NCBI RefSeq assembly: GCF_000981785.2
Contig: NZ_CP011304.1
Span: 4,262,214-4,294,213 of the forward strand
Direction: 5' to 3'
Length of the DNA: 32,000 nt
Source: Microcystis aeruginosa NIES-2549
GTDB lineage: Bacteria > Cyanobacteriota > Cyanobacteriia > Cyanobacteriales > Microcystaceae
Shown: in pieces, positions 5,416 to 30,097 of the stretch
Position numbering within the stretch: the stretch's first letter is position 1
Layout of the letters: every line of letters begins with the position of its first letter
Notes under the pieces: generated by a model
Told to the model about the DNA's origin: nothing
What the model saw: only the letters and a program-made list of their open reading frames with translations
The model's database searches: none
Position numbers and translations under genes: made by a program

Positions 5416-5450
5416 TCCCCCGCTAACCGCTCGCGCGGTGTAGCGGGGGA
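5416..5450 (-). other. subterminal hairpin of the IS right end (expected 3' part of the TnpB omega-RNA region)
   Basis: tcccccgctaaccgc (5416-5430) pairs with gcggt-g-tagcggggga (5435-5450). This gives a 15-bp stem with one bulge and a 4-nt loop. It overlaps the last tnpB codons and the stop. Confidence 0.7.
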
Positions 5451-6682
5451 TTCTCGGTTCTTAGGCTTTTAACTAGATCGACCTGGTTTAACCGGTCGAT
5501 CCCCGTCAAATCGCCTCCGCGAGCGTTTTCTAACACGGTCAGTCCGACCGCGTTTTTTCCTCGGTTCTCGATTACCTTCGCTGATGCCGTATCTCTTGGT
5601 TCAATGTGGCCGCAGAAATTGCATCGGTGAACTCTTTCTGATAACGCTTTTTTGCCGGTAATCGCGCCACAATTAGGACACTCTTGCGAAGTTCCGTTTT
5701 TATCAACCTTAAGATAATATTTTCCCCGTTTCCAAACGACAAACGGTAGTATCTCGTTAATAAAACTACCGATGCCTGAATCCAGAGATTGTTTTCTAAC
5801 GATCCCTCTAGACCAGGAAACAAAGTTAATATCCTCAACGAAGATGTTATCAGCGAGATCGCAAAGGTAATGACTTAGTTTAAAGTGCCAATCTCTACGA
5901 GTATTAGACACTTTTTCGTGTAATCTTGCTATCTTCTCCTGAATTTTTAACCAATTGCTAGAGCCTTTGACTTGATGTTTCAAGCGTCTTTGTAGCAATT
6001 TAAGCTTACTCTGTACTTTCAACAAAAATCGAGGGGCTTTGATTAAATATCCCTGTGAAGTAGCGACAAAACTCTCAATTCCTGCGTCGATTCCTAAACA
6101 GGTTTTCCCAGCCGTTATATCGGGGACGGATTCTTGGGACTTAAAGGAAACCGAAACGTAAAATCCCGACGCTTTGCGGATAATTTGAGCTTGTTTAGGC
6201 TCAAACCCAGACGGGTACTCCCTAGATTTCCTAATCCGAATTTTTCCCAATTGTGGAAAATTTAAGTATTCGTCACCTAGAAAGTTTTTTGACAGCGCGG
6301 GGAAAACAAAACTTCGCATCTTTTTCTTAAATCTAGGAAAGCCGAAGCCTTTCGATTTCATGCGGTCAAACGCTTTATCTAAAGTTTTTAAGACTTGCTG
6401 TAAGACTTGAGCGTTAACCGTCTTTAATATCGGGTAAACTTTTTTAGCTTCCGTTAGATTTTTAGCTTGAACGAAGTAATTAGGATAGGGTTCATCCGCA
6501 GGAATTATGTACTCAGAAACTAGCGAACAGCGATCCGCAAGACACTTTCGAGAGTTCAACCAATCCTTCCGTTCCGAGAGCGCGTAATTGTAAACGCTCT
6601 TGCCAACATCAAGAATGTGGACGATCTCCCGTTCCTGTTGCCTGTTTACCTTTAGTTTGTACTGGTAGGTAAGCGTTATCAC
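5423..6682 (-). CDS. tnpB: RNA-guided endonuclease TnpB (IS200/IS605 OrfB)
   Basis: 419 aa with the layout N-terminal MITLTYQYKL..., a RuvC-like IDAGIESF, and the C-terminal zinc ribbon CPNCG...CNFCGHIEPRDTASAKVI. The ORF is intact. Confidence 0.9.
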   Translation of the reverse strand: MITLTYQYKLKVNRQQEREIVHILDVGKSVYNYALSERKDWLNSRKCLADRCSLVSEYIIPADEPYPNYFVQAKNLTEAKKVYPILKTVNAQVLQQVLKTLDKAFDRMKSKGFGFPRFKKKMRSFVFPALSKNFLGDEYLNFPQLGKIRIRKSREYPSGFEPKQAQIIRKASGFYVSVSFKSQESVPDITAGKTCLGIDAGIESFVATSQGYLIKAPRFLLKVQSKLKLLQRRLKHQVKGSSNWLKIQEKIARLHEKVSNTRRDWHFKLSHYLCDLADNIFVEDINFVSWSRGIVRKQSLDSGIGSFINEILPFVVWKRGKYYLKVDKNGTSQECPNCGAITGKKALSERVHRCNFCGHIEPRDTASAKVIENRGKNAVGLTVLENARGGDLTGIDRLNQVDLVKSLRTENPPLHRASG

Positions 6683-6732
6683 TGTCGTTTGTTTCGTGAT
6701 GTAGAATTAGATTATAACACTTATCGCCTAAT

Positions 6733-7163
6733 ATGTCAACCGATTATAATCATGGATTTCGCTCCGTTTATAGACTTACCGCTCATGTCGTATTCGTCAT
6801 CAAATACCGACCATTGCTATTAACAATGAAATCTTAGCCCGACTTAAAGAAATCTTGGTGTCAACGCTGACAAAATGGGAAAGCGTGTTGCTTGATTTCA
6901 ACGGTGAATCGGATCACGTTCACCGGATTATCGATTACAAACCTGAGATCGCTTTATCCAAATTAATCGCTAACCTTAAAACAGTTAGTAGTCGCTTAAT
7001 TAGAAAAGAATTTCCGTACTTAGCGGCAAAGTATTTCTACAACAAACCCTATTTTTGGACGGGAGGTTATTTCGTGGCCAGTTGTCGCGGCGTTACCATC
7101 GAACAACTAAAAAAATACGTCGATAACCAAAACTACCCGAAAGTGGAAACGCTACCGCGTTAG
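6733..7163 (+). pseudogene. tnpA: IS200/IS605 Y1 (HUH) transposase TnpA, disrupted by a 1-nt frameshift near 6811
   Basis: Frame 1 gives MSTDYNHGFRSVYRLTAHVVFVIKYRP... and stops at 6835-6837. The conserved continuation IAINNEILARLKEIL...ESDHVHRII (HUH)...KKYVDNQ (catalytic Tyr) reads in the frame starting at 6813. The two parts join only if one nucleotide is restored after cga cc. Confidence 0.8.
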
Positions 7164-7210: not shown

Positions 7211-7296
7211 ATCAGTTATCAATGATTCAGTTCTCAGTTATCAGTGATTCAGTTACCAGTTATCAGGTGTGAGTTTACAGTTTACTGTTTACTGTT
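7211..7296. repeat. heptamer-periodic tandem repeat (CAGTTAT / TTACTGT-type)
   Basis: Reads atcagtt atcaatg attcagt tctcagt tatcagt gattcag ttaccag ttatcag ... tttacag tttactg tttactg. It runs into the last codons and stop of nth. Confidence 0.75.
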
Positions 7297-7941
7297 TGCT
7301 GCGGGACAAAGAGAGGCTAATTGACAGGAAAAACAAGCGGGATTTCTTGCTTTACAAACCGCCCGGCCGTGGTAAATAATACTAATAGAAAAAGTTTCCC
7401 AATCCGGTTGAGGTAGTAAAGCCATTAAATCCCGTTCAATTTTCACCGGATCGTTATTAGTAGTTAAACCCAAACGATTACTTAAGCGCTTAACGTGGGT
7501 ATCTACTGTCACCCCCTCAATAATCGCGTAAGCGTGAGCAAGTACCACATTAGCCGTTTTTCTAGCTACTCCGGGTAAAGTTAATAATTCCTCCATTGTC
7601 TTGGGTACTTCCCCCTGAAAATCCTTAAGAATTTTTTGACAAGCACCCTGAATATTTTTGGCTTTATTGCGATAGAATCCCGTGGAACGAATCAGAGTTT
7701 CTAACTCCTCTCGCTCGGCAAAAGCTAAGGATTTAGCATCGGGAAAACGAGCAAATAAAGCAGGAGTCACCTTATTTACCCGCTCATCAGTGCATTGTGC
7801 CGAGAGGATCACTGCCACCAATAACTGCACGGGAGTTTGATAATTTAAGCTACAGGTTGCCTCTGGATATAATCGCTTTAAGTTGCTTAAAATCTCTAGG
7901 ACGTGCAGTTGAAGCTGAGTTTTTTTTCGAGGGGCCATCAC
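7282..7941 (-). CDS. nth: endonuclease III (DNA glycosylase/AP lyase)
   Basis: HhH motif (LPGVARKTANVVL), catalytic K/D region, and a C-terminal 4Fe-4S ligand pattern C-x6-C-x2-C-x5-C (CKARNPACFSCQLASLC). Confidence 0.92.
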   Translation of the reverse strand: MMAPRKKTQLQLHVLEILSNLKRLYPEATCSLNYQTPVQLLVAVILSAQCTDERVNKVTPALFARFPDAKSLAFAEREELETLIRSTGFYRNKAKNIQGACQKILKDFQGEVPKTMEELLTLPGVARKTANVVLAHAYAIIEGVTVDTHVKRLSNRLGLTTNNDPVKIERDLMALLPQPDWETFSISIIYHGRAVCKARNPACFSCQLASLCPAANSKQ

Positions 7942-10512: not shown

Positions 10513-10940
10513 CTTAAGATATGTCGGGAGTCAGGAGACAGGGAACAGCTATCAGGAAGGCTCTCTTAGGTTTGCTGGGTAAAATGTATTCTAAGATACA
10601 TTCTTGCGGGCAAGTGAGTGGAACGAACCACAGAGACACAAAGGACACAAAGACCGATCACTACTATATAAGTTAAACTTATCACACAAAGAATAAGAGA
10701 GCCATCAGGGATCGGATTTGATACTAAATCCGTTGAGTATAGGCCACTTATGAGGAGAGGCAAAAGGCAATAATTTGCTATAATCAGTCTAGGATATACG
10801 AAAAATTTTCAGATATTTATTCCGAGAAATCGACTAAAAACGTTGCCAGATAAGGATTTGAGAGAATGACATTTGAGAGAATGAAACGACCCTAGTATTA
10901 AGGGGCGAGCCATCTTCGATTTAATTATAACCAGCTACTT

Positions 10941-10968
10941 AACTGATAACTGATAACTGATAACTGTT
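10941..10968. repeat. heptamer tandem repeat (AACTGAT x3 plus a variant)
   Basis: Reads aactgat aactgat aactgat aactgtt. It overlaps the bolA stop codon (10967-10969). Confidence 0.8.
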
Positions 10969-12895: not shown

Positions 12896-12962
12896 TTATT
12901 AATTGATTTTTGAAAAATGGTAAGTAGCTGGTTATAATTAAATTTAAAATGGATTTTGGGTT

Positions 12963-13036
12963 CGATCCCCCCTTAGTCCCCCCTTGATAAGGGGGGTGTC
13001 GATCCCCCCTTAGTCCCCCCTTGATAAGGTGGGTGT
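12963..13036. repeat. 2 x 37-bp tandem hairpin repeat (cgatccccccttagt-CCCCCCTTGATAAGGGGGG-tgt)
   Basis: The units at 12963-12999 and 13000-13036 differ at one position. The core is the same G/C-clamp hairpin found in the arrays at 15508-15791 (reverse orientation) and 16131-16362. Confidence 0.85.
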
Positions 13037-13128
13037 CTGATAATTTTTAACGCCTACCTACTTATAAGCCAATAACACCACTCCAAAGGGGTCTAGTATA
13101 ATTAGAAGAGGTTGATCAAAGGGGGTTT

Positions 13129-15483
13129 ATGGACGATAAAACCACAAAGCCGGAAGCATCGGAATCTGAAGAGAAAAAAGAATCAGATTTTGACCAGGAA
13201 AAGGAACAGGCTCAAGTTTGGACGGGAAAAATCACTGCTTTTGTTGCCCATCAACTCCGAACCTCCGCTCCTTCCCTTCCAATTATCGGGGGTAGCATTA
13301 CAGGTATCTTAACTTGGCTTAGTCAACATGACACGGTTAAGGCGATTATTGTCGGGGGAGTCACCTTTATCGTCACGGGCTTTTTTACCTACGGATCAGC
13401 CTGGAGTCAAGGGTTTTTAGAAATAGCAAGAACCAAAGGTAAAAATCATGGTAAAGGTTCAGCTTTAAGCTTTTTTGTTTGGCTAGACAAAGGACTGGAA
13501 AAAATACGTTGGCAATTAGCTAATCCTGACGGGAAATATTTAATTAAATTACGGGATTCAGATTGTCGTTATGATGATATTGAAGGGATTGAAGATGCAA
13601 TCTTTGGTTTTTCTACCCCAGAACTAGAAGAAATTTTTATTAATTTGGATCTGAGTCAATTAGAACTGCGCTCAGAAGAAGAGTCTAAAGGTACGGGGGA
13701 TGATATTTGGGATTTATTGCGACGGGCTAAAAAGAGGACAAATTTACGGTTGTTAATTCTGGCTCCTGGTGGCCGAGGAAAAACGACTTTATTGCGTCAT
13801 TTAGCCTATAACTACGCTCTAAAACAACCGAAACAAAATGCACCTTTTTTAATTCCTGTCTTTTTACGTTTACGGAGATGGCAGGAAGTGATTACCACCA
13901 CAGAAGGATTGGATTTACCAACCTTAATTGAGCGACATCTTAAACAAGATATTTCTCAAGAATTAGATTTACCTCAGCACTGGGCTAAAAGTCATTTAAC
14001 CCGTCAGCGAATGTTAGTGATGTTTGATGGTTTTGATGAAGTTAAACCCGAATATGCCGAAAAAATCAGTCAATGGATTGGCAAACAGTGGCATGATTTT
14101 CGCCAAAACTATTTTATTTTAACCTCTCGTCCCAAAGGCTATCAAGCGTTTAGCTCTGAGCATAAACCTCGACAAAAGGTGTTTATTAATGAATTTACCG
14201 ATAAAAATATTCATGATTTTGTCTATAAATGGTATTTCTGGCAAGAGCAGGAAACCAGAGTTAGCAGAAGTTTAAAAGCTAAACAAGAAGCTGCCGACAA
14301 TAAAGCAAAGGATTTAATTAATCAGTTATTTGCTCTCGATGATTCCGGGGAAAGTTCTACTCTATTAGCCTTAGCGAGAAATCCCTTAAATCTGAATATG
14401 ATAGTACAGTTACATCGGGCAAACTTTGGCTCGGAACAAAAATTACCTCAGCAACGAGTGGATTTATTTCGCCGAATTTTTGATCTGCAATTGATCACTC
14501 GCCCTCAAGCTAGGGGCATTGATATGATTTTAGATAATAATGAGGAAAATCATCGTCAACGGGTATTGCAACAGTTAGCCCTGAAAATGGGAAATACAAC
14601 CACGATTGAATATTCAGAATTACTGAGTTCTATACAAAATTTTATTCAGGAATTGGGTTATCCTGAAAGCACTTCGGCTAAGGATTTTGTAGAGCGGTTA
14701 ATTCATGTGAGCGAGTTAATTTTGAAAAAGGATGAATACTATGAGTTTGCCCATAATCTTTTTCAGTCCTATTTAATTGCTTTGGAGATTAAACGGTTAA
14801 AGCAAGAAAATTTACTCTGGGAAAATTGGGAACAAAATCTCTGGTACGAGACTTGCATTATGTATGCAACTTTATTGACTAATCCGACTGATTTTATTGT
14901 CTATTTTTATAATCAATCTAATCCTAAAGCTCAGGGATTAGCGGAGCGATGTTATCGAGAATTACCTGTTAAAAAACGTCGAGGTTTGGAATTTTTAGAA
15001 CAAAGACGACAGACTTCTCTCTTTACTCAACTAGAAACCTATCTGAAAAATGGCCAATGGCGCGAAGCCGATGAAGAAACGGCGCGGTTAATGTTGTTAA
15101 TTGCTAAAAGGGAAGATGAAGGCTGGCTAGATGAAGAAAGTGCTGAAAACTTTCCCTGTGAGGAATTACGCACCATTGACAAGCTCTGGGTAGATAATAG
15201 CGGCAGCAAATTTGGCTTTTCTGTGCAGAAAAAAGTCTGGCTGGATTGCGGTGGTGTCCCAGGGGAATACGATTATGATGTGTATAAAAAATTCGCTGAC
15301 GAGGTGGGTTGGCGCAGGAGCGGAAACTGGTTGAGCTATGATGAGCTAACTTTTTCATTAGAGGGTAGTCAACACGCATACCTACCGTCACCTTGGTGGA
15401 GGGTCGTGGGGCGCACACCAGGGGGGGGGGTTGGTCGCCGCGTGTGGTGGAGGGTATCTCTTTTCTCGCGCAGCGACTTGTAA
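13129..15483 (+). CDS. STAND NTPase: N-terminal transmembrane segment, NACHT domain, helical middle region, C-terminal GUN4-like domain
   Basis: Hydrophobic helices lie near residues 35-95 (ITAFVAHQL..., IIVGGVTFIVTGFFTY). NACHT motifs are Walker A LILAPGGRGKTTLLRHLA, Walker B MLVMFDGFDEV, then FILTSRP and NPLNLNM. The C-terminus (YLKNGQWREADEETARLML...FPCEELRTIDKLWVDNSGSKFGFSVQKKVW...VGWR...AYLPS) matches the GUN4 pattern. An SD-like aaggggg precedes the ATG. Confidence 0.85.
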   Translation: MDDKTTKPEASESEEKKESDFDQEKEQAQVWTGKITAFVAHQLRTSAPSLPIIGGSITGILTWLSQHDTVKAIIVGGVTFIVTGFFTYGSAWSQGFLEIARTKGKNHGKGSALSFFVWLDKGLEKIRWQLANPDGKYLIKLRDSDCRYDDIEGIEDAIFGFSTPELEEIFINLDLSQLELRSEEESKGTGDDIWDLLRRAKKRTNLRLLILAPGGRGKTTLLRHLAYNYALKQPKQNAPFLIPVFLRLRRWQEVITTTEGLDLPTLIERHLKQDISQELDLPQHWAKSHLTRQRMLVMFDGFDEVKPEYAEKISQWIGKQWHDFRQNYFILTSRPKGYQAFSSEHKPRQKVFINEFTDKNIHDFVYKWYFWQEQETRVSRSLKAKQEAADNKAKDLINQLFALDDSGESSTLLALARNPLNLNMIVQLHRANFGSEQKLPQQRVDLFRRIFDLQLITRPQARGIDMILDNNEENHRQRVLQQLALKMGNTTTIEYSELLSSIQNFIQELGYPESTSAKDFVERLIHVSELILKKDEYYEFAHNLFQSYLIALEIKRLKQENLLWENWEQNLWYETCIMYATLLTNPTDFIVYFYNQSNPKAQGLAERCYRELPVKKRRGLEFLEQRRQTSLFTQLETYLKNGQWREADEETARLMLLIAKREDEGWLDEESAENFPCEELRTIDKLWVDNSGSKFGFSVQKKVWLDCGGVPGEYDYDVYKKFADEVGWRRSGNWLSYDELTFSLEGSQHAYLPSPWWRVVGRTPGGGVGRRVWWRVSLFSRSDL

Positions 15484-15507
15484 CCTGTAATATATCACAG
15501 ATTTAGA

Positions 15508-15791
15508 CATCTTAAACCAGTAAAAAGCCCCCCTTATCAAGGGGGGTTGGGGGGATCAAACCTATGCAATTAACCCATCATCTTAAACCAGTAAAAAGCC
15601 CCCCTTATCAAGGGGGGTTGGGGGGATCAAACCTATGCAATTAACCAATCATCTTAAATCAGTAAAAAGCCCCCCTTATCAAGGGGGGTTGGGGGGATCA
15701 AACCTATGCAATTAACCAATCATCTTAAACCAGTAAAAAGCCCCCCTTATCAAGGGGGGTTGGGGGGATCAAACCTATGCAATTAACCAAT
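15508..15791. repeat. 4 x 71-bp tandem repeat, each unit carrying the hairpin module plus the DUF559 start codon region
   Basis: Units start at 15508, 15579, 15650 and 15721. Units 2 and 4 are identical; units 1 and 3 each differ at one position. The unit is catcttaaaccagtaaaaagCCCCCCTTATCAAGGGGGGttggggggatcaaacctATGcaattaaccaat. Confidence 0.95.
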
Positions 15792-16211
15792 CATCATCAT
15801 CTACCCTACAATCCCAAACTCGTAGAACGAGCCAAAGAACTCCGTAAAAATATGACCAAAGCTGAAAGAAAACTTTGGTATGAATACTTAAAAAATTTTC
15901 AATATAGAGTTCATCGTCAAAGACCGATTGATCAATTTATTGTTGACTTTTATTGCCCCGAATTAAAATTAGTGATTGAAATTGATGGTGATATTCATAA
16001 TAGGGAAGATGCTCAGAACTATGACTTAGAAAGAACCCAAATTTTATCAGGTTATGGATTAACAGTAATCCGCTTTACTAATCAAGAAGTTTTGAGTAAT
16101 TTTGAGGGAGTTTGTGGAGTAATTGGAAGTTTGATCCCCCCAACCCCCCTTGATAAGGGGGGCTTTGATCCCTCCTTATTAAGGGGCTTTGATCCCCCCA
16201 ACCCCCCTTGA
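15777..16211 (+). CDS. DUF559 (Vsr-like / restriction-endonuclease-fold) domain protein
   Basis: LPYNPKLVERAKELRKNMTKAERKLWYEYL...HRQRPIDQFIVDFYCPELKLVIEIDGDIH...DLERTQILSGYGLTVIRFTNQEVL is the DUF559 core. The first 5 codons lie in the last 71-bp repeat unit. The last roughly 25 codons (PPTPLDKGGFDPSLLRGFDPPNPP) are read-through into the downstream array. Confidence 0.85.
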   Translation: MQLTNHHHLPYNPKLVERAKELRKNMTKAERKLWYEYLKNFQYRVHRQRPIDQFIVDFYCPELKLVIEIDGDIHNREDAQNYDLERTQILSGYGLTVIRFTNQEVLSNFEGVCGVIGSLIPPTPLDKGGFDPSLLRGFDPPNPP

Positions 16212-16362
16212 TAAGGGGGGCTTTGATCCCTCCTTATTAAGGGGCTTTGATCCCCCCAACCCCCCTTGATAAGGGGGGCTTTGATCCCTCCTTATTAAGG
16301 GGCTTTGATCCCCCCAACCCCCCTTGATAAGGGGGGCTTTGATCCCTCCTTATTAAGGGGGA
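16131..16362. repeat. 4 x 58-bp tandem repeat carrying the hairpin module in the opposite orientation to the upstream array
   Basis: Units start at 16131, 16189, 16247 and 16305 and are identical until the last few nt. The unit is ttgatccccccaaCCCCCCTTGATAAGGGGGGctttgatccctccttattaaggggct. Confidence 0.95.
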
Positions 16363-16462
16363 TCTGACAATTTTTAACACCTAACTAATTAGAGAGGAAA
16401 AGAATACCCAAAAAGTTCTATTGACAACTTTTACAAGAGAGATCAAGGAGAAAATCAAGGAT

Positions 16463-17731
16463 TTACAATCTCGGTTTCAGAACAGTCCACTGGGTTACGG
16501 GGGCCATGGCTTTCCAACCTAAAAACTTACCGACCGGTTCGGCTTTTTCAATGCCAATCCGCAGCAGTTCCCCTCCTAATTTACTATGCCATTGCAAGAG
16601 GACTAATTCGCTTTCAATTGTAACAGTGTTGGCAACAAGACGACCCCCGGGGCGCAGGGCTAACCAACAGGTTTCCAATAGGTGGGGTGTGGTGATACCG
16701 CCACCAATAAAAATAGCGTCCGGTTGCGGTAAATCTTCCAAGGCACTCGGTGCGATTCCGGCGACGATTTGCAGATGGAGCGTTCCCAGGGCGGCGGCAT
16801 TATCGGCAATGTATTGTAATCTGGTGGGATGATGTTCGATCGCAATCCCCTGGCAACGGCGATCGCTACGCAGCCACTCAATGGCAATGGAACCACAACC
16901 TGCCCCCACATCCCAGAGCAATTGTCCGGGTAAGGGAGCCAATCTACTCAGCGTGATAGCACGAACTTCTCTTTTTGTCAACTGTCCGTCATGATGGTAG
17001 GCAGAATCCGGCAGTCCTGGAAGGCGCGGCGCCAGGGTGGGGGGATGGGAGGAGATGCAGCTAATGGCGATGACATTTAAATCCGCCAGATCTGTAAACT
17101 GCCAATCGTTGGCGATGCCTTGAATGTGGCGTTCTCGGGTTCCCCCTAGATGTTCTAAAACCGTGATGGAACTCTCGCCAAAACCTCCCTCCCTGAGCAG
17201 CCGAGCAGCGAGCGCCGGAGTCTGGGCATCAGCACTCAGTACCAGCAGTTTAGCGCCGGGATAAAGCACCCCATTCAAGCAGGCTGGGGGCCGACCGCAC
17301 AAACTCAAAGTTTCCACTTCACTCAGGGACCAACCCAAACGACTACAGGCAAGACTGAAGGCAGAAGGAGAGGGAATAATCGTCATTTCCTCAAGGGGAA
17401 TCTGACGGGTGAGGGTGACACCAATCCCGTAGCACATGGGATCACCACTGGCCAAAACACAGACGGATTGACCACGACGGCGGATAATCTCGTTAACAGA
17501 GTCTTGGATGGGAGAAGTCCAGAGCAGTTTTTGCCGTTGATCCTCAGGGGGTAACATTGCCAGATGACGTTCACCACCGACAATAACTGATGCTAAAGAA
17601 AGCAGACTTCGCCCCACCGAACTTAAACCTTCTAAGCCATCTTCACCAATTCCTATGATCGATAGCCATTTCGACTTACAATTGCGATCCGCCATATTAA
17701 AAAAAATCGCTACTATTTCATTATCTGCCAT
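16463..17731 (-). CDS. cobL: precorrin-6Y C5,15-methyltransferase (decarboxylating), fused CbiE/CbiT
   Basis: The N-terminal tetrapyrrole methylase half has IIGIGEDG and VLASGDPMCYGIG. The C-terminal half has the SAM-binding LWDVGAGCGSIAIEW. The start may be the internal M at codon 13. Confidence 0.9.
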   Translation of the reverse strand: MADNEIVAIFFNMADRNCKSKWLSIIGIGEDGLEGLSSVGRSLLSLASVIVGGERHLAMLPPEDQRQKLLWTSPIQDSVNEIIRRRGQSVCVLASGDPMCYGIGVTLTRQIPLEEMTIIPSPSAFSLACSRLGWSLSEVETLSLCGRPPACLNGVLYPGAKLLVLSADAQTPALAARLLREGGFGESSITVLEHLGGTRERHIQGIANDWQFTDLADLNVIAISCISSHPPTLAPRLPGLPDSAYHHDGQLTKREVRAITLSRLAPLPGQLLWDVGAGCGSIAIEWLRSDRRCQGIAIEHHPTRLQYIADNAAALGTLHLQIVAGIAPSALEDLPQPDAIFIGGGITTPHLLETCWLALRPGGRLVANTVTIESELVLLQWHSKLGGELLRIGIEKAEPVGKFLGWKAMAPVTQWTVLKPRL

Positions 17732-17794: not shown

Positions 17795-18442
17795 ATGACC
17801 ACCACCGCCGATGATGTTTGGAAATTATTAGCCGAATTAGTAGAAGCTCAAAAAGAAACAGAAAGATGCTTTCAAGAAACCGAGCGACGCTTTCAAGAAA
17901 CCGAGCGTGTTCTCAAAGAACAATCTTTAAAAACCGAGCGACGCTTTCAAGAAACCGAGCGCATTCTCAAAGAACAATCTTTAAAAACCGATCGCCAAAT
18001 TACCAGAGTCAGTCAAGAAATTGGTAATCTTGGAGGTAAATGGGGACGTTTTGTCGAAAATATGGTAGCCCCAGCTTGTGAGACTTTATTTTTAAATCGT
18101 GATATTCCCGTACATCAAGTTAGTCAAAGAGTCAGAAAACGTCTCGACGGTAAAACCCTAGAAATTGATGTGTTAGTAACTAATGAGAATCATGTGCTAG
18201 TAGTGGAAGTCAAAAGTAGTTTAAGTGTAGATGATGTCAAAGAATTAATCAAGAATCTAACAGAATTTAGGCAATTTTTCCCAGAATATAACCAGAAACA
18301 ATTATATGGGGCAGTAGCAGGCATTGAAATCGAAGAGGGAGCGGATAAATATGCCTATCGTCAAGGTTTATTTGTCTTGGCACAAAGGGGAGAAAATGTA
18401 GCGATTCTTAACGATACTGAGTTTCAACCGAAAACGTGGTAG
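17795..18442 (+). CDS. coiled-coil / PD-(D/E)XK nuclease-fold protein (DUF3782-like), tandem copy 1
   Basis: The N-terminus carries heptad/undecad repeats (RFQETER, VLKEQSLKTER). The C-terminal half has LEIDVLVTNENHVLVVEVKSS, i.e. D ... E-x-K spaced as in PD-(D/E)XK nucleases. Confidence 0.7.
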   Translation: MTTTADDVWKLLAELVEAQKETERCFQETERRFQETERVLKEQSLKTERRFQETERILKEQSLKTDRQITRVSQEIGNLGGKWGRFVENMVAPACETLFLNRDIPVHQVSQRVRKRLDGKTLEIDVLVTNENHVLVVEVKSSLSVDDVKELIKNLTEFRQFFPEYNQKQLYGAVAGIEIEEGADKYAYRQGLFVLAQRGENVAILNDTEFQPKTW

Positions 18443-18499
18443 GGGCTTTAAAAACAAGATATAATCAAGTTATTGTCAAGTTAATTCAGATGAAAAATT

Positions 18500-19135
18500 A
18501 TGACCACCACCGCCGATGACGTTTGGAAATTATTAGCCGAATTAGTAGAAGCTCAAAAAGAGACAGAAAGATGCTTTCAAGAAACCGAGCGACGCTTTCA
18601 AGAAACCGAGCGGATTCTCAAAGAACAATCGTTAGAAACCGAGCGGATTCTCAAAGAACAATCTTTAAAAACCGATCGCCAAATTACTAGACTCAGTAAA
18701 GAAATTGGTAATCTTGGCGGTAAATGGGGACGTTTTGTCGAAAATATGGTAGCTCCAGCTTGTGAGACTTTATTTTTAAATCGTCAGATTCCCGTACATC
18801 AAGTTAGTCAAAGAGTCAGAAAACGTCTCGACGGTAAAACCCTAGAAATTGATGTGTTAGTAACTAATGAAAATCATGTGCTGGTAGTGGAAGTCAAAAG
18901 TAGTTTAAGTGTAGATGATGTCAAAGAATTAATCAAGAATCTAACAGAATTTAGGCAATTTTTCCCAGAATATAACCAGAAACAATTATATGGGGCAGTA
19001 GCAGGCATTGAAATCGAAGAAGGAGCAGATAAATATGCCTATCGTCAAGGTTTATTTGTCTTGGCACAAAGGGGGGAAAATGTAGCAATTCTTAACGATA
19101 CTGAGTTTCAACCGAAAACGTGGTATGATCCTTAA
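18500..19135 (+). CDS. coiled-coil / PD-(D/E)XK nuclease-fold protein (DUF3782-like), tandem copy 2
   Basis: Near-identical to copy 1 at a 705-bp period, including about 45 bp of upstream sequence. It differs by one 7-aa repeat unit, a few substitutions and a 3-aa longer C-terminus. Confidence 0.7.
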   Translation: MTTTADDVWKLLAELVEAQKETERCFQETERRFQETERILKEQSLETERILKEQSLKTDRQITRLSKEIGNLGGKWGRFVENMVAPACETLFLNRQIPVHQVSQRVRKRLDGKTLEIDVLVTNENHVLVVEVKSSLSVDDVKELIKNLTEFRQFFPEYNQKQLYGAVAGIEIEEGADKYAYRQGLFVLAQRGENVAILNDTEFQPKTWYDP

Positions 19136-19253
19136 GCTTGTCTTTGGGAAAGTCCAGTGCGATTCTGGTACTGTGCCGCAGCTGTAATCAAGTAAAAAGT
19201 AAAAAGAGTACATCTTCCCTTTTTCCTTGCGAGTCAGAATGCCAATTACAAGT
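19136..19253 (+). promoter_or_regulatory. cobalamin (B12) riboswitch upstream of cobG-cobH-cobI
   Basis: The core GGGAAAGUCCAGUGCGAUUCUGGUACUGUGCCGCAGCUGUAA closely matches the conserved cobalamin riboswitch core (compare E. coli btuB GGGAAUCCAGUGCGAAUCUGGAGCUG...GCAGCGGUAA). A B12-box-like GAGUCAGAAUGCC lies at about 19231-19243. A possible P1 pairs gcttgt (19136-19141) with acaagt (19248-19253). Confidence 0.8.
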
Positions 19254-19319
19254 TTTTAATCGGTAGATAGACAAATATTTTCTAACTACTTCTCTGCGTC
19301 GCATGGAGAACAAACAACG

Positions 19320-23540: not shown

Positions 23541-23629
23541 AAATGCTTATTTATGGTATTAGCTAAAGTGGTTTTCGGTGCAGCCCCGACCACTAGATCA
23601 ACTTTTTGACCCCTTTTGAGGATCATCAG
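23541..23629. repeat. diverged tandem copy of the 3' end of trxA
   Basis: 23541-23629 aligns with 23635-23723 (period 94) with about 10 mismatches. On the minus strand it would encode [33 protein letters not shown], a paralogous thioredoxin C-terminus. Confidence 0.85.
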
Positions 23630-23954
23630 GTTTCAGGTGTTTATCTATGGTATTAGCTAAAGTGGTTTTCGGTACAGCCCCGACCACCATATCAACTTTT
23701 TGACCTCCTTTGAAAATCATCAGAGTAGGAATACTGCGAATCCCGTACTGACTAGCGATATTGGGGTTTTCGTCGGTGTTGAGTTTCACCACCTTGACTT
23801 TCCCTATGAACATTTCGGCAATTTCTGCGACAACGGGAGCCACCATTCGACAAGGACCGCACCAAGGAGCCCAGAAATCCACTAGGACAAGGTCGGTACT
23901 ATCTAAAACTTCGACTTTAAAGTTGGCATCTGTAACTGCAGGAACCTCTGACAT
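23598..23954 (-). CDS. trxA: thioredoxin
   Basis: WCGPC active site and the full Trx fold pattern ([19 protein letters not shown]...[15 protein letters not shown]). The last 11 residues ([11 protein letters not shown]) come from out-of-frame reading into the duplicated segment. Confidence 0.9.
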
Positions 23955-25749: not shown

Positions 25750-28120
25750 GTGCGACTCGTTCCTACCAAAAGTCTAACAGACGTGGGTAGGACAAGGTTG
25801 AGAACCTTGATAACTCAATAACCGTGAAGGTGAAAGTCCTTCCCTCCAGATGATGGAGTGACAGCATAACCCCTTCCTGTGGAGAACGGTCATCAAAATG
25901 GGAAAAGCGGGGTTAAATGGCAGTAAAGATGAATCTGACATCAAAACCTGTCTAGCATCTAACTATGTGTATGAATAAGAACTTCCGTCAGAAGTATCGT
26001 CACTGAAACCTAGCCTACACAGATTATTGGCTGGCAACAAAATGTTAACAAGCTAACGTACTGGGAAAAGATAGAGTTCAACCAGAATCATCTACACAGC
26101 TTCGGTATAGAGGAAGACACTAAAGTTAGGAATACGGTTGTTGGGAACGAAGTAATCCTTATGAATCTCTTAGATAGGTCGAAATCTAAGTAGTAACCAG
26201 CGTAAGACTCATATAGGAAAGGATTGTGTAAGAAGCCAACGCCTATCTGTAATAGATAAGGATATGCTGACGTACACACTGTTCAATGGAATGAATGGTC
26301 TTAAGTAGTAATGAAAAAGTTATGAACACGGCAACAAAACCGATGTATGAATGGAAGGACATCAACTGGCGAAAAGCTGAAAGATGTGTTTTTAAGTTAT
26401 CAAAAAGAATATTCAAAGCCAGTCAACGGGGTGATGTCAAATTAGTCCACAAATTACAAAGGCTACTCCTAAAAAGCTGGTACGCCAAACTGATAGCCGT
26501 CAGACGGGTTAGCCAAGATAATCAAGGCAAGAAAACCGCAGGGGTAGATGGGATAAAATCCTTAACACCCAAACAAAGAATGGCACTTGTCAATAATCTA
26601 AAACCTGGCAATAAATCAAAACCAACTCGTAGAGTATGGATACCAAAACCCAATACGGATGAAAAGCGACCTCTAGGGATTCCCACCATGTACGAACGGG
26701 CATTACAAGCCTTAGTAAAACTGGCATTAGAACCCGAATGGGAAGCAAAATTTGAACCTAACAGTTATGGATTTAGACCAGCACGTTCAGCCCATGACGC
26801 AATCGGAGCAATCTACATAAGCATCAACAAAAAGCCCAAATATGTGCTAGATGCGGACATAAGTAAATGCTTTGATAAAATAAACCACCAGAAACTACTG
26901 ACAAAACTTCAAACTTACCCCAAGCTAAGACAACAAATCAAAGCATGGCTAAAGAGTGGAGTCATGGATGGAAAAAACCTATTCCCTACCAATGAAGGCA
27001 CACCACAGGGAGGTGTAATCTCCCCTTTACTAGCTAACATAGCCTTACACGGCATGGAAGAAAGAGTTAAGCAATATGCAAAAACTCTGAAAGGCAATAA
27101 ATCCAAAAATGAACAAGCCTTAACCCTAATCAGATATGCAGATGATTTTGTTATCCTGCACGAAGATTTAAAGGTAATAAAGGAATGTCAAGAAATCATT
27201 AAACAATGGTTAGCAGAAATGGGGCTAGAACTGAAGCCTAGTAAAACAAGAATATCCCATACTCTTGAAACTTATGATGATTACGTTGGATTTGATTTTC
27301 TCGGATTCAACATCAGGCAATACCAAGTCGGAAAACATCACGGGGCAAAAAGTAGTAAAGGAGTCAAACTAGGTTTTAAAACCCTAATCAAGCCTAGTGC
27401 TGAAAAAGTCAAGTCCCATCTAAAGAAATTGGGAGAAGTAGTAAATAGTCAGAAGTCATCCCCACAGGATGCCTTAATCAAACGACTCAATCCAATCATT
27501 AGAGGATGGAGCAATTACTATTCATCAGTAGTAAGCTCAAAAACATTCACAGATTGTGATTACTACTTCTTTGAAAAACTCAAGAGATGGGCATACAGAC
27601 GACACCCAATGAAAAACAAAACTTGGATAATGCGTAAATATTGGCATACTGAGGGAAAAGATAATTGGGTATTCAGCACAAGAGGAGGTAAAAACCCCTT
27701 CAAACTGGCAAGACACCTAGATACAAAAATCGTAAGATACGTCAAGGTGAAAGGGGATAAAAGTCCCTATGATGGGGATTTAATATACTGGAGTAGTCGA
27801 ATGGGTAAACACCCAGAAATGCCACCAGAAAAAGCTATTCTACTCAAAAGACAGCAAGGACGTTGTGCATATTGTGGACTATATTTCCAAGATGGAGACA
27901 TACTCGAAACCGACCACATTATCCCTAAATCAAAAGGGGGTAAAAACAATCGAGATAATAAACAGTTACTCCATCGACATTGCCACGATTCTAAAACTGC
28001 ATTAGATAAAACTGGTACTCATGACAAAGAGCCATTGGAGAGAGGAGCGGTGTGAGGTGAAAGTCTCACGCACCGTTTTGAAGCCGAGCCAGAATGGTGA
28101 CATATCTGGCTTAGGGCAAC
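25750..28120 (+). mobile_element. bacterial group II intron (2371 nt) with an intron-encoded RT-maturase-HNH protein
   Basis: The 5' end is GUGCGAC and the 3' end is ...AAC. Domain V (28045-28078) is GAGCGGUGUGAGGUGAAAGUCUCACGCACCGUUU, close to the DV consensus with the AGC triad and a GAAA loop. Domain VI has a stem of 28087-28093 with 28105-28111 and a bulged A at 28113, 7 nt from the 3' splice site. Removing the intron precisely restores the conserved TnpB N-terminus. A tentative EBS1 gataga (26070-26075) pairs with IBS1 tctatc (25744-25749). Confidence 0.88.
26295..28055 (+). CDS. group II intron reverse transcriptase / maturase with a C-terminal HNH endonuclease domain
   Basis: RT motifs (RRVWIPKPN...KRPLGIPT, FDKINH, GTPQGGVISPLLANI, YADDFVIL), an X/maturase region (LNPIIRGWSNYY) and HNH (CAYCG...DHIIPKSKGGKNNRDNKQLLHRHCH). 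The start may be the internal M at 26322. Confidence 0.92.
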   Translation: MVLSSNEKVMNTATKPMYEWKDINWRKAERCVFKLSKRIFKASQRGDVKLVHKLQRLLLKSWYAKLIAVRRVSQDNQGKKTAGVDGIKSLTPKQRMALVNNLKPGNKSKPTRRVWIPKPNTDEKRPLGIPTMYERALQALVKLALEPEWEAKFEPNSYGFRPARSAHDAIGAIYISINKKPKYVLDADISKCFDKINHQKLLTKLQTYPKLRQQIKAWLKSGVMDGKNLFPTNEGTPQGGVISPLLANIALHGMEERVKQYAKTLKGNKSKNEQALTLIRYADDFVILHEDLKVIKECQEIIKQWLAEMGLELKPSKTRISHTLETYDDYVGFDFLGFNIRQYQVGKHHGAKSSKGVKLGFKTLIKPSAEKVKSHLKKLGEVVNSQKSSPQDALIKRLNPIIRGWSNYYSSVVSSKTFTDCDYYFFEKLKRWAYRRHPMKNKTWIMRKYWHTEGKDNWVFSTRGGKNPFKLARHLDTKIVRYVKVKGDKSPYDGDLIYWSSRMGKHPEMPPEKAILLKRQQGRCAYCGLYFQDGDILETDHIIPKSKGGKNNRDNKQLLHRHCHDSKTALDKTGTHDKEPLERGAV

Positions 28121-28451
28121 CGACCAGTGAGCAATCCGTTTTGCTTGCCAAGTCGTTTGGCTGTGCTAGATGGTTTTACAATTACGCTCTAAACTTGACA
28201 TCCGAAACTTACAAGCAAACTGGAAAAGGATTAAGCAGAGACGAAATAATTAAGCTGCTGCCTTCCCTAAAAAAAAGTATGAGTGGTTAAGCGAAGTACC
28301 ATCGCAGGTATTACAACAAGCCGCTTTAAATCTTTCTAGTGCTTTCCTTAACTTTTTTGAAGGTAGAGCTAAATATCCTAACTTCAAGAAAAAACAGAAT
28401 AGGCAGTCGATTAGATTTCCTCAGCACTGTAAGTTAAAAAATGATGTTCTG

Positions 28452-28554
28452 GTATTAAGTAGTCGTGCAAAATAAATTTCCTAGTGAAGATAGGCAAGAG
28501 GCAATAGGCAAGAGGCAAAAGCTTTATCGAAATGTGTAATTAATGTTGCTTAGG
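28452..28554. mobile_element. roughly 103-bp insertion (MITE-like or footprint) inside tnpB
   Basis: Deleting exactly 28452-28554 joins ...KLKNDVL to YLPKIGEVHC... in frame and with the spacing seen in TnpB proteins. The insert contains stops and an internal direct repeat (ggcaagaggcaa taggcaagaggcaa). GGTA occurs at both junctions. Confidence 0.5.
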
Positions 28555-29407
28555 TACTTACCTAAAATTGGTGAAGTCCATTGCCAAGTTTCACGGCAAC
28601 CAGAGGGAGACTTAAAGTCTGTTACGGTTTCAGTTAATCCATCAGGAGAATATTTCGCATCTTGTCTTTATGATGATGGTCAGGATTTACCCCAAAAATT
28701 AACAGAAGGAAAAACTATCGGGATAGACGTTGGACTAACCCATTTTGCTATTACATCAGATGGGACTAAACACGGGAATCCTCAATACTACCGTAAGTAC
28801 GAACAGAGATTAGCGAGGAGACAAAAGAAACTTAGTCGCAAGCAAAAAGGGTCTAACAACCGCAATAAAGCTAGAGTTAAAGTTGCTAAAGTTCACTCTA
28901 AAATTGTTCGTTGTCGTGAAGATTTTCTGCACAAACTAAGTCGTAAATTAGTTGACGAAAACCAAGTCATAGTGATAGAAAATCTGGCAGTCAGAAACAT
29001 GATCAAGAATCAAAATCTAGCCAAGTCAATTAGTGATGCTGGTTGGGGTCAATTCTGTACCATGTTGAAATATAAAGCTGAATGGGAAGGGAAAATTTAT
29101 CTTGAAGTAAATAGATTTTTTCCTAGTTCCAAGACTTGTAGTAACTGCTTAAATCGTGTTGATAGTTTGAGTTTAGATATTCGTAGTTGGCAATGTCCTA
29201 AGTGTGGAGAAACCCACGATAGAGACATCAATGCCGCTAAGAATATTCGAGATGAAGGTTTACGAATTTTGGCGGTAGGGCATACCGCTACTGCTTCTGG
29301 AGGGAGAGTAAGACCAAGTAAAGGCACTGCTTTTGCAAGGCATCTCCCCGTGAATGAAGAATCCCTCGCTTCAGTGCTTCGGGGAGTGTCAACCCATTCC
29401 CTGCCAA

Positions 29408-30097
29408 TGGACTGAACTGGGAATCCGTCGCTATGGTTTCCATGGCACCAGTCATCAGTACTGCTCGCAACGGGCCGCCGAATTGTTGGGAAAACCCCTA
29501 GAATCCTTGAAAATGGTGATCTGTCATCTGGGCAATGGTGCTTCCCTATCGGCAGTCAAGGGGGGTAAAAGTATCGATACCACTATGGGATTTACTCCCC
29601 TAGAGGGATTGATGATGGGAACCCGCAGCGGTACGATCAATCCAGTGATTCTGATTTATCTAGAGCGAGAATACCAATATAATCCCGATATTTTAAAGAT
29701 TTTACTGCATAAAGAATCTGGTTTAAAGGAAATTTCGGGTATTTCTGGGGATATGCGGGCAATTACGACGGCAATGGCCGAAGGCAACCAGAGGGCAAAA
29801 TTAGCATTTGAGATGTATATTCATCGTCTGAAAAGTTTAATCGGATCGATGATTGCTTCTCTGGAGGGGTTGGATGTGTTGGTATTTACGGCAGGAATCG
29901 GCGAAAATTCAGCTTTAGTACGGGAAAAAGCCAGTCAAGGCTGGTCTTTTTTGGGTTTAGAGTTAGATTTGGCTAAAAATGCCGCCCATCCCCGCGATGA
30001 GGATATCGCCACCGACACATCTAAAGTAAGAGTGATGGTAATTGCTACGGCGGAAGATTCGGCGATCGCAAGAGAATGCTGGCATTTATCCCCATAG
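29408..30097 (+). pseudogene. ackA: acetate kinase, 3' fragment (about the C-terminal 230 codons)
   Basis: WTELGIRRYGFHGTSHQYC...MVICHLGNGASLSAVKGGKSIDTTMGFTPLEGLMMGTRSG...VFTAGIGENS matches AckA from its mid-protein GIRRYGFHGTSH motif to the end. About 170 codons between the two fragments are absent from the window. Confidence 0.85.

Follow-up and report, generated by a model that had tools for sequence, protein, structure and literature searches.

DUF559 (YcjD-type) nuclease genes between inverted copies of BoxC/triplex-motif repeats: a linkage conserved across bacterial phyla and a candidate partner enzyme

Short hairpin repeats of the BoxC/PIT/‘triplex motif’ (TM) class, on record since the 1990s and present in more than 260 genomes, have been linked to local instability, and no enzyme, origin or mechanism of spreading is known for them. 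A locus in Microcystis aeruginosa NIES-2549 puts such a repeat in the company of a gene. It lies in a 32,000-nt stretch of the genome (assembly GCF_000981785.2, contig NZ_CP011304.1, forward-strand positions 4,262,214 to 4,294,213), referred to here in its full length as the window, in which a small nuclease gene of the DUF559 family is bracketed by two tandem arrays of one hairpin module: upstream, each copy reads hairpin, TT, G-run, and downstream the same module returns as its reverse complement. Why should a nuclease gene sit between inverted copies of a repeat, and what does its product do to them? In repetitive extragenic palindromic (REP) systems of the RAYT-REP/REPIN type, HUH Y1 transposases are flanked by their cognate REPs, and the original prediction, made from the letters of the window, was that the nuclease may likewise be cognate to the hairpin or, alternatively, that gene and arrays may form a selfish homing cassette. 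Here we show by genome comparison that the physical linkage of YcjD-type DUF559 genes to BoxC/TM-type repeats is conserved across phyla. That the protein is a cognate nuclease partner, acting on the flanking hairpin-plus-run repeat and driving its copying, array changes and rearrangements, is a proposal to which we give an even chance.

The answer begins outside the window. Metagenome contigs were searched with an alignment of the protein core only, which kept the repeat-encoded tail from biasing the outcome, and flanks were tested by an upstream/downstream inverted-repeat score of at least 12, with other open reading frames (ORFs) on the same contigs as controls. Matching inverted modules occurred on both flanks of 31 of 58 distinct DUF559 genes, which range from cyanobacteria to gut bacteria, compared with 1 of 208 control ORFs (Mann-Whitney p 6e-13). 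In 88 kb of flank lying farther than 300 nt away, the gene-adjacent hairpins recurred only 8 times, a local enrichment of ~70-fold. Junction geometry was surveyed in 28 distinct cyanobacterial-type DUF559 genes: ATCCCC lies within 80 nt of the domain end in 17 and exactly 18 nt after codon 113 in 12, it is in frame 0 in 14/17 cyanobacterial-type genes, and a G-run is present upstream in 22/28, with the ATG 0-9 nt after GGGGGGATC. The same junction can be read in the proteins. On inspection, most of the cyanobacterial homologues in a list of 120, with identities of 62-99%, were seen to terminate in …(L/M)IPP(T/N/S)P(L/P)xKGG or in a decayed version; this …IPP… tail is the module read in one frame, and some N-terminal read-throughs show the inverted module.

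Orthologues bare of flanking modules would have been awkward for the original prediction, and those of Crocosphaera, Anabaena, Floridaenema, Microcoleus and many further lineages carry them, with the same cassette nearly base for base in Crocosphaera and Anabaena. More distant homologues (45-57% identity), which come from the gut, from sediment and from other sources, repeat the arrangement [hairpin, linker, G-run], ATG … [C-run, linker, hairpin] with module sequences entirely different from those of the window, and yet the two flanks match each other. Such lineage-specific flank pairs include one of 30 nt (locus L262), one of 20 nt (L305) and those of L296/L298 and L300; Deinococcus proteolyticus has 53-nt arms with the gene inside a doublet of modules, and Picosynechococcus PCC 7002 has modules on both flanks. 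Modules on one flank were seen upstream in Azospirillum and Neisseria gonorrhoeae and downstream in Sinorhizobium. Compared in this way, the loci show a conserved unit, [hairpin, short linker, G-run], 0-9 nt, ATG … ORF … [C-run, linker, hairpin], in which the last 6-12 codons are supplied by the repeat, and which occurs, with lineage-specific repeats, across cyanobacteria, Proteobacteria, Deinococcus and uncultured gut and sediment lineages. The core of the original prediction, a specific RAYT/REPIN-like tie between DUF559 and its repeat, thus gains support from a family-wide association, a fixed junction and co-variation by lineage.

What, then, is the repeat? The window module, CCCCCC-TTATCAA-GGGGGG-TT-GGGGGG, fits the three-block layout of BoxC, PIT and TM elements, a likeness of sequence layout, for which the published TM consensus is CCCTCNCCC-N3-6-GGGNGAGGG-N3-GGGNGAGGG (Holder et al. 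2015, PMC4666352). By that layout the module is a member of the BoxC/PIT/‘intrastrand triplex motif’ class, a hairpin with an adjacent G- or C-run (PMC4666352), and is not a new repeat. The same study counted 23 copies in E. coli K-12 and 443 G/C-rich motifs in M. aeruginosa NIES-843, noted that triplex motifs often stand in inverted pairs and that local variability around them is significantly raised, never found a mobility function near them, and names neither ycjD nor any endonuclease (PMC4666352).

Scanning a genome collection for the module returned at least 120 loci, nearly all in cyanobacteria and spread over many orders; among the module loci listed, DUF559 was present in 3 of 120, in two of these within 60 nt of the module, a low share such as a repeat with a single partner gene would be expected to show. 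A module dispersed through genomes and not enriched beside DUF559 would have counted against the original prediction: widespread without the gene it is, but the enrichment at DUF559 flanks given above contradicts the second half. The gene-less copies are intergenic, dispersed in the same genomes and mostly arranged as ~80-nt doublets with a median of 62 nt between the two ends; 70 pairs face outward (GATC ends outward) and 5 inward. Internal-deletion remnants of the cassette would be expected as inward pairs, and this origin of the gene-less copies is rejected on that ground; the gene-less doublet equals the spacer between tandem DUF559 copies of Crocosphaera. The modules are not the 3' end of some other gene family either, as an ORF of at least 70 codons reads into only 16 of ~140 modules, just one of the 16 being DUF559. 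In viral contigs a loose module pattern gave 107 matches, none with DUF559 nearby, which look like chance or unrelated sequences.

The linkage extends to E. coli, where ycjD belongs to the same family (NCBIfam YcjD model). The gene ends in motif-like sequence, followed by a partial duplicate of its last ~60 nt and then by the published TM_ECO/BoxC copy no. 9 (1,351,239-1,351,204; PMC4666352), ~165 nt past the ycjD stop; with 18 TM loci in 4.6 Mb, we put the probability that one falls so near any particular gene at ~0.3%. Of 5426 complete E. coli genomes, 3376 have the ycjD region, which alternates with eefRABCD at the sapF-fabI locus (PMC12817139). In a sample of 60 evenly spaced genomes, with statistics not phylogenetically corrected, the median number of other repeat places was 16 in ycjD+ and 2 in ycjD- genomes (p 9e-10, ignoring kinship). 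As a separate observation, a perfect hairpin with a 16-bp stem overlaps the annotated GTG start of ycjD in K-12 (L310, 1,351,150-1,351,800).

All of this could be granted and the association still be passive, with DUF559 an ordinary accessory or repair nuclease (e.g. Vsr-like) lodged in unstable, repeat-rich intergenic regions or, in a variant, with the 3' end of an ancient DUF559 gene having seeded a repeat family on which the protein does not act. The gene does lie in a variable, defence- or toxin-antitoxin-rich neighbourhood, the repeats are known instability hotspots (PMC4666352), most copies have no DUF559 nearby, they persist in ycjD-negative E. coli, and VsrA of Caulobacter has been interpreted as a mismatch nuclease (PMC12907096). 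A merely unstable neighbourhood does not account well for flanking inverted modules being seen at only 1 of 208 neighbouring ORFs on the same contigs, for a junction position and frame kept across orders and phyla, or for matching copies on both flanks that co-vary by lineage. Furthermore, no cytosine methyltransferase gene was noted beside DUF559 in the window or in the loci inspected; in the window it lies between a NACHT-GUN4 gene and a gene for a tetrapyrrole methylase, neither of them a DNA methyltransferase. We consider a passive association unlikely.

Checked by hidden Markov model, as the original prediction had advised for its DUF559/Vsr-type fold, the ORF matches Pfam DUF559 (PF04480) over residues 15-116 with E 3.9e-30 and 104.4 bits (gathering cut-off 20.6), and D57, E68, D70 and H74, in the EIDGDxH stretch, are invariant. 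Its Pfam matches are DUF559, MTES_1575 and DUF2726 only, with none to the Vsr family. The NCBIfam YcjD model (NF007294 / PRK09767) is matched at 67.3 bits over positions 4-106 of 117, below the equivalog cut-off of 218 bits, and the window protein is therefore of the YcjD family but not an equivalog. The nearest solved structure by sequence is PDB 3hrl (E 6e-14). An AlphaFold2 model (predicted local distance difference test 83.7) has a confident folded core at ~residues 9-117, and residues 118-144, translated from the repeat, form a low-confidence tail. Searched with this predicted model, Foldseek found 3hrl and the homing endonuclease I-Bth0305I (3r3p_A; E 3.4e-4, template modelling scores of 0.54 query-normalised and 0.78 target-normalised, root-mean-square deviation 2.9 Å), and ranked Vsr lower (1cw0, E 0.098). 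PADLOC returned nothing beyond weak partial matches for DUF559.

Within the window (Table 1), Tandem Repeats Finder recovered the two arrays of the original prediction, each with four units in this assembly. Each upstream unit consists, in order, of an A-rich leader, the hairpin, TT, GGGGGGATC, 6 nt, and the ATG with the first 6 codons; each downstream unit joins a 34-nt long module to a 24-nt short variant, TTTGATCCCTCCTTATTAAGGGGC. The exact complementarity noticed between the two sides was found throughout: AAAGCCCCCCTTATCAAGGGGGGTTGGGGGGATCAAA is present in all upstream units and its exact reverse complement in all downstream units, and an inverted-repeat search of the window joined every upstream to every downstream unit, giving 16 pairs of arms, 37-38 nt long and 100% complementary. 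When folded, the module core gives a stem of 8-9 bp closed by a 3-nt loop (~-9 kcal/mol as DNA), in agreement with the 8-bp stem of the first reading; the fold covers the hairpin part, triplexes lying outside what ViennaRNA models. The window has 9 occurrences of the hairpin pattern, and 100 dinucleotide-preserving shuffles have none. The ninth copy belongs to a third array (12958-13037; 37 bp x2.2), which has no DUF559 neighbour. On the coding strand AAAGCCCCCCTTATCAAGGGGGGTTGGGGGGATCAAAC is a G-form triplex-type motif whose G-run ends 9 nt before the ATG, a layout that recurs in Crocosphaera and Anabaena. At the other end, the ATCCCC of GTTTGATCCCCCCAACCCCCCTTGATAAGGGGGGCTTT begins 18 nt after codon 113 and is translated in frame as LIPPTPLDKGG, and the 3' end of the ORF does run into the downstream array, as had been noticed, since its stop lies in the second 58-bp unit.

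Table 1. Features of the window discussed in the text (positions within the 32,000-nt stretch)
Feature	Position	Strand	Basis or remark
Complete gene-less miniature inverted-repeat transposable element (MITE), TAAGTAGCTGGTTATAATTAAATT … AATTTTTAACGCCTACCTACTTA	12921..13064	+	Holds 37-bp x2.2 module array 12958-13037
Segment absent in GCA_009811855.1 (L325), 3,340 bp	12997..16336		Comparison with Microcystis assembly
NACHT-GUN4 STAND NTPase, upstream neighbour	13129..15483	+	Inside variable segment; context only
Upstream tandem array, 71-bp unit x4.1	15508..15795	+	Tandem Repeats Finder, 98% matches
Upstream module copies	15524-15561, 15595-15632, 15666-15703, 15737-15774	+	Inverted-repeat search
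Three overlapping 26-codon mini-ORFs	15564-15644, 15635-15715, 15706-15786	+	Made by duplication of start region
Gene-proximal upstream module AAAGCCCCCCTTATCAAGGGGGGTTGGGGGGATCAAAC	15737..15774	+	C-stem, loop, G-stem, TT, G-run
DUF559 / YcjD-type PD-(D/E)XK (Vsr/EDxHD-fold) nuclease ORF, 144 aa	15777..16211	+	Pfam PF04480
Gene-proximal downstream module GTTTGATCCCCCCAACCCCCCTTGATAAGGGGGGCTTT	16129..16166	+	Exact reverse complement of upstream module
Downstream module copies	16129-16166, 16188-16224, 16246-16282, 16304-16340	+	Inverted-repeat search
Downstream tandem array, 58-bp unit x4.0	16130..16360	+	Tandem Repeats Finder, 100% matches
Right terminus of Microcystis MITE family, …TCTGACAATTTTTAACACCTAACTAATTA	16358..16391	+	82% identical to 13031-13064

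The arrays themselves, striking as they look, are secondary, strain-variable local amplifications and not a designed feature. Three other Microcystis assemblies have 1, 3 and 1 upstream units; the orthologous locus of strain L228 combines a single upstream unit with ~5 irregular downstream modules, and that of strain L229 three upstream with ~2 downstream units. Because the arrays are present, with other copy numbers, in these three further assemblies, they are real and not the assembly artefact that the original prediction had thought possible. Read from the sequence, the boundaries of the 71-bp units share a common CATC, which would fit a microhomology-mediated duplication at CATC that was amplified later. 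The ‘decoy starts’ proposed for the upstream array exist as three mini-ORFs with the sequence given for them there, but are not conserved; strain L229 has AGG for ATG in 2 of 3 upstream units, and they are probably by-products.

A G-run directly ahead of a start codon suggests a humbler role at the level of RNA, in which hairpin and G-run form a structured 5' untranslated region with a Shine-Dalgarno sequence that represses a toxic nuclease, the C-run acts as an anti-Shine-Dalgarno-like sequence pairing with the G-run, and the 3' hairpin stabilises or terminates the mRNA; the dispersed gene-less copies would then have no relation to the protein. In many lineages the G-run does end 0-9 nt before the ATG (it is GAGGTG in L300), upstream and downstream runs are exactly complementary, the upstream hairpin, read on the opposite strand with the CTTTTT that comes after it, has a terminator-like score, and the repeat-encoded tail, being predicted with low confidence, is not needed for the fold. 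Such control is difficult to reconcile with hundreds of gene-less intergenic motif copies per genome (our scan; PMC4666352), with the flipped orientation in Deinococcus and L307, where the C-run is upstream, or with a distance of ~60 nt between G-run and ATG in gut lineages. The fold predicted for the 5' untranslated region does not exceed shuffled sequences in stability (z -0.5), neither promoter nor terminator activity was seen for PIT/BoxC elements in E. coli (summarised in PMC4666352), and an Rfam search of 15300-16500 returned no RNA family, riboswitch or intron match; a sigma-70 promoter scan was uninformative (1 match, 2.5 expected). RNA-level control as the whole explanation strikes us as improbable.

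Comparison of strains places the locus within a wider traffic of repeats. The downstream array and 16358-16391 jointly make up the right half of a MITE whose family is found in Microcystis (TAAGTAGCTGGTTATAATTAAATT … AATTTTTAACRCCTAMCTACTTA), the terminus at 16358-16391 recurring at other Microcystis loci and being contiguous with the MITE left end in L325. The complete gene-less member at 12921-13064 has terminal inverted repeats TAAGTAG…CTACTTA, and a partial left end of the family lies near 10890-10940 (minus strand). The interior of these MITEs is a variable-number array of the hairpin module, from 1-2 up to ~14 modules across loci and strains; the copy in L139 has ~14 by blastn and 8 by exact pattern match. 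At the DUF559 cassette only the right MITE terminus is present, the left one not being found upstream, and no consistent target-site duplication was seen. The array copy number that the original prediction proposed comparing does vary between strains, and the local anatomy turns out more ordinary, the downstream array being part of a MITE.

The modules also mark breakpoints. The segment absent from GCA_009811855.1 comprises the rest of the first MITE, the NACHT-GUN4 gene and the DUF559 cassette; its breakpoint falls inside a shared 19-nt hairpin, CCCCCCTTGATAAGGGGGG (12978-12996 / 16318-16336), and that assembly retains one hybrid MITE and an identical CbiE/T-like neighbour (window 16463-17731). 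L228 is rearranged directly after its downstream array. The absence of a segment with its breakpoint in the hairpin in one strain and rearrangement at the array in another make the modules recombination points in an accessory region. The gene itself takes part in duplications: in Crocosphaera DUF559 and modules are tandemly duplicated with a 528-bp period in L311-L314 and L318 (single in L315-L317, L319 and L320), gene end and module are duplicated in Crocosphaera, in E. coli and in proteins P0005/P0040, and L327 (3001-3916) has a whole-gene tandem duplication whose repeat unit also carries a Y1 transposase gene fragment. Near window position ~10937, L325 has an extra ~100-nt segment, and its 86% identity with window 28456-28565 marks it as a further small dispersed element.

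None of this points to the cassette itself as an actively mobile element. DUF559 is not a known transposase family, and each locus or replicon has a single copy of the gene. It keeps its synteny within Microcystis, within Crocosphaera and within Anabaena, and it occurs in 27 of 72,556 plasmid records (plasmid or chromid), in one place each. An actively transposing or homing cassette is unlikely given this synteny, single placement and rarity on plasmids, and the selfish alternative of the original prediction thereby loses its footing. Could the inverted repeats instead make DUF559 an invertible, phase-variable cassette? In a systematic screen DUF559 was 14-fold enriched among predicted programmed-inversion targets (PMC9881135), which is an independent confirmation of the flanking inverted repeats; but 17 assemblies (4 Microcystis, 10 Crocosphaera, 3 Anabaena) show a single orientation, no recombinase gene is adjacent and the arms are only ~37 nt long, so that inversion appears to us barely credible.

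Another enzyme might be the true partner, namely a RAYT-like Y1 (HUH) transposase mobilising the modules as ordinary REPs. The case for it comes from the Microcystis-like locus L327, where a 255-aa Y1_Tnp gene, divergent to DUF559, starts ~20 nt from the upstream module and has as its best NCBIfam match ‘REP-associated tyrosine transposase’ (RAYT; 66.9 bits), from a 69% identical homologue in L133 with a doublet ~230 nt away, and from the wide distribution of the family in cyanobacteria. It fades in the flanks of the family elsewhere, where no C5-loop-G5 hairpin or triplex-type motif was found in 5 of 5 further lineages (Microcystis, Calothrix, Microcoleus, Xenococcus); the conserved partner there is a convergent GUN4-domain gene, L133 has a GTAG-headed palindrome of the classic REP type beside its Y1 gene, and no transposase or integrase remnants were seen around E. 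coli BoxC/TM_ECO sites (PMC4666352). The flanks of those five lineages largely refute the Y1 transposase as the real partner, and we hold it to be very unlikely. The 255-aa family (64-79% identical: L327 2180-2947, L133 1071-1838, L337 1501-2277, L339 1501-2295) has a GUN4-domain gene, often NACHT-GUN4, as a recurrent convergent neighbour, and the intergenic sequence at their common 3' side is conserved; in the window the NACHT-GUN4 gene is present and the Y1 gene of this family absent.

Further repeats and mobile elements lie elsewhere in the window. At 26295-29415 and 29354-30097 mobile elements are nested, a group II intron (reverse transcriptase/maturase/HNH ORF 26295-28055; Rfam domain V matches 28042-28114) appearing to lie inside an IS605-type TnpB gene, whose helix-turn-helix part is at 28021-28290 and the rest at 28543-29415, abutting a 5'-truncated acetate kinase gene. 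An IS200/IS605 element at 5423-7163 pairs a TnpB-like ORF (419 aa, minus strand) with a 5'-truncated Y1 TnpA ORF (102 aa). Two tandem paralogues of 215 and 211 aa at 17795-19135, with weak NERD and PD-(D/E)XK matches, have N-terminal in-frame repeats of 21, 33 and 54 nt (ETERRFQ-type) whose number differs between the copies. A cobalamin riboswitch (19106-19264; Rfam, 32.4 bits) precedes nitrite/sulfite-reductase-like (CobG-type) and cobalamin biosynthesis genes, and a 94-nt x1.9 tandem duplication (23547-23723) overlaps the 3' end of a putative thioredoxin gene (23598-23954, minus strand). Heptamer tandem repeats of the cyanobacterial short tandemly repeated repetitive (STRR) type, e.g. TAACTGA and ATCAGTT, occur at 2124-2157, 2280-2305, 7211-7301, 10940-10966 and 28492-28518, and several of them adjoin mobile-element ends.

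How might DUF559 act if it is indeed the cognate partner of the repeat? The nuclease would recognise the folded repeat, a hairpin with the run possibly folded back, when it is single-stranded or extruded, and would nick it where the run meets GATC or close by. If the nick were then repaired by template switching or by recombination with other copies, the outcome could be new copies, expansion or contraction of arrays, and deletions or insertions between copies. Residence of the gene between two repeat copies would keep enzyme and substrate linked, as in RAYT/REPIN, and the G-run 9 nt before the ATG may double as a ribosome-binding site. The enzyme may spread the repeats, restrain them or process the structures they form.

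Several observations weigh against this proposal. About 45% of the sampled DUF559 genes have no clear flank pair, and the gene lies mostly outside the doublet (GATC ends facing it) but inside it in Deinococcus and L307, so the element lacks one canonical structure. In E. coli, phylogroup confounds the correlation (1-3 copies in B2, ~14 in ycjD-negative O157:H7, 20 in K-12), and the copies kept by O157:H7 mean that repeats persist without the gene. The copying step is conjecture, as strand transfer is not an obvious activity for a nuclease of ~120 aa; the G-run sits at the Shine-Dalgarno place, and translation could account for part of the conservation upstream; and VsrA, which alone among DUF559-containing proteins has in vivo data in the literature searched, is read as a Vsr-like mismatch nuclease (PMC12907096). 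Of the original interpretation, then, the linkage stands, and the homing cassette is unlikely.

Literature searches found no paper linking the DUF559/ycjD family to a repeat, and as far as the searchable literature goes the link appears undescribed, which makes DUF559 the first candidate partner enzyme for the BoxC/PIT class. More tentatively, and with the balance tilting against it, we suggest that YcjD/DUF559 proteins could be the missing enzymes of the BoxC/PIT/‘triplex motif’ repeats across Bacteria, structure-specific nickases that would recognise a hairpin-plus-run fold of DNA, possibly an intrastrand triplex, and drive its copying and the accompanying instability, their single-copy genes being kept between two copies of their own substrate. 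The linkage renders the question testable in E. coli with ycjD, TM_ECO oligonucleotides and the natural ycjD+ and ycjD- phylogroups. If the proposal is true, a large ‘domain of unknown function’ family would gain a function, part of the exceptional genome plasticity of Microcystis would be explained, and the REP/RAYT paradigm would acquire a second enzyme class, a mechanistically independent RAYT/REPIN-like symbiosis built on a restriction-endonuclease fold; if it is refuted, the fixed in-frame overlap of a coding sequence with a dispersed repeat would still need explaining.

Set beside known systems, the locus borrows from several. With cyanobacterial MITEs and small dispersed repeats, for which the 2008 survey by Elhai and colleagues reportedly proposed no protein partner, it shares short structured repeats nested in MITEs and tandem arrays. 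With BoxC/PIT/TM_ECO (Bachellier, 1990s; Hoyne and Maher 2000; Holder et al. 2015) it shares the C-stem, loop, G-stem, TT/TTA linker (2-3 nt) and second G-run, as well as an intergenic, multi-copy habit, frequent inverted pairs, abundance in M. aeruginosa and ties to local rearrangements; the cyanobacterial blocks differ in being homopolymeric (C6/G6) with a GATC end, and where those papers found no associated gene, a nuclease gene is consistently flanked here. The fold and the conserved acidic/histidine region EIDGDxH are common to I-Bth0305I and Vsr, but DUF559 is a free-standing intergenic ORF, outside any intron or intein, not adjacent to a cytosine methyltransferase and with no extra DNA-binding domain. 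VsrA of Caulobacter is likewise a DUF559-domain nuclease unlinked to a methyltransferase gene and can damage DNA in vivo, whereas it is interpreted as acting in T:G mismatch repair tied to ScmA methylation, with no flanking repeats reported (PMC12907096). The parallel with RAYT-REP/REPIN systems is one of organisation: an apparently low-copy, vertically stable gene with inverted copies of a short palindromic repeat on its flanks, a repeat that is dispersed gene-less, mostly as doublets, and co-varies with the gene lineage, and fewer repeats in strains that lack the gene (in the E. coli sample). In place of the HUH tyrosine transposase stands a PD-(D/E)XK nuclease of the Vsr/EDxHD fold, in place of the GTAG-headed palindrome a hairpin with a homopurine/homopyrimidine run, and the DUF559 repeat overlaps the coding sequence of its putative partner in a fixed frame.

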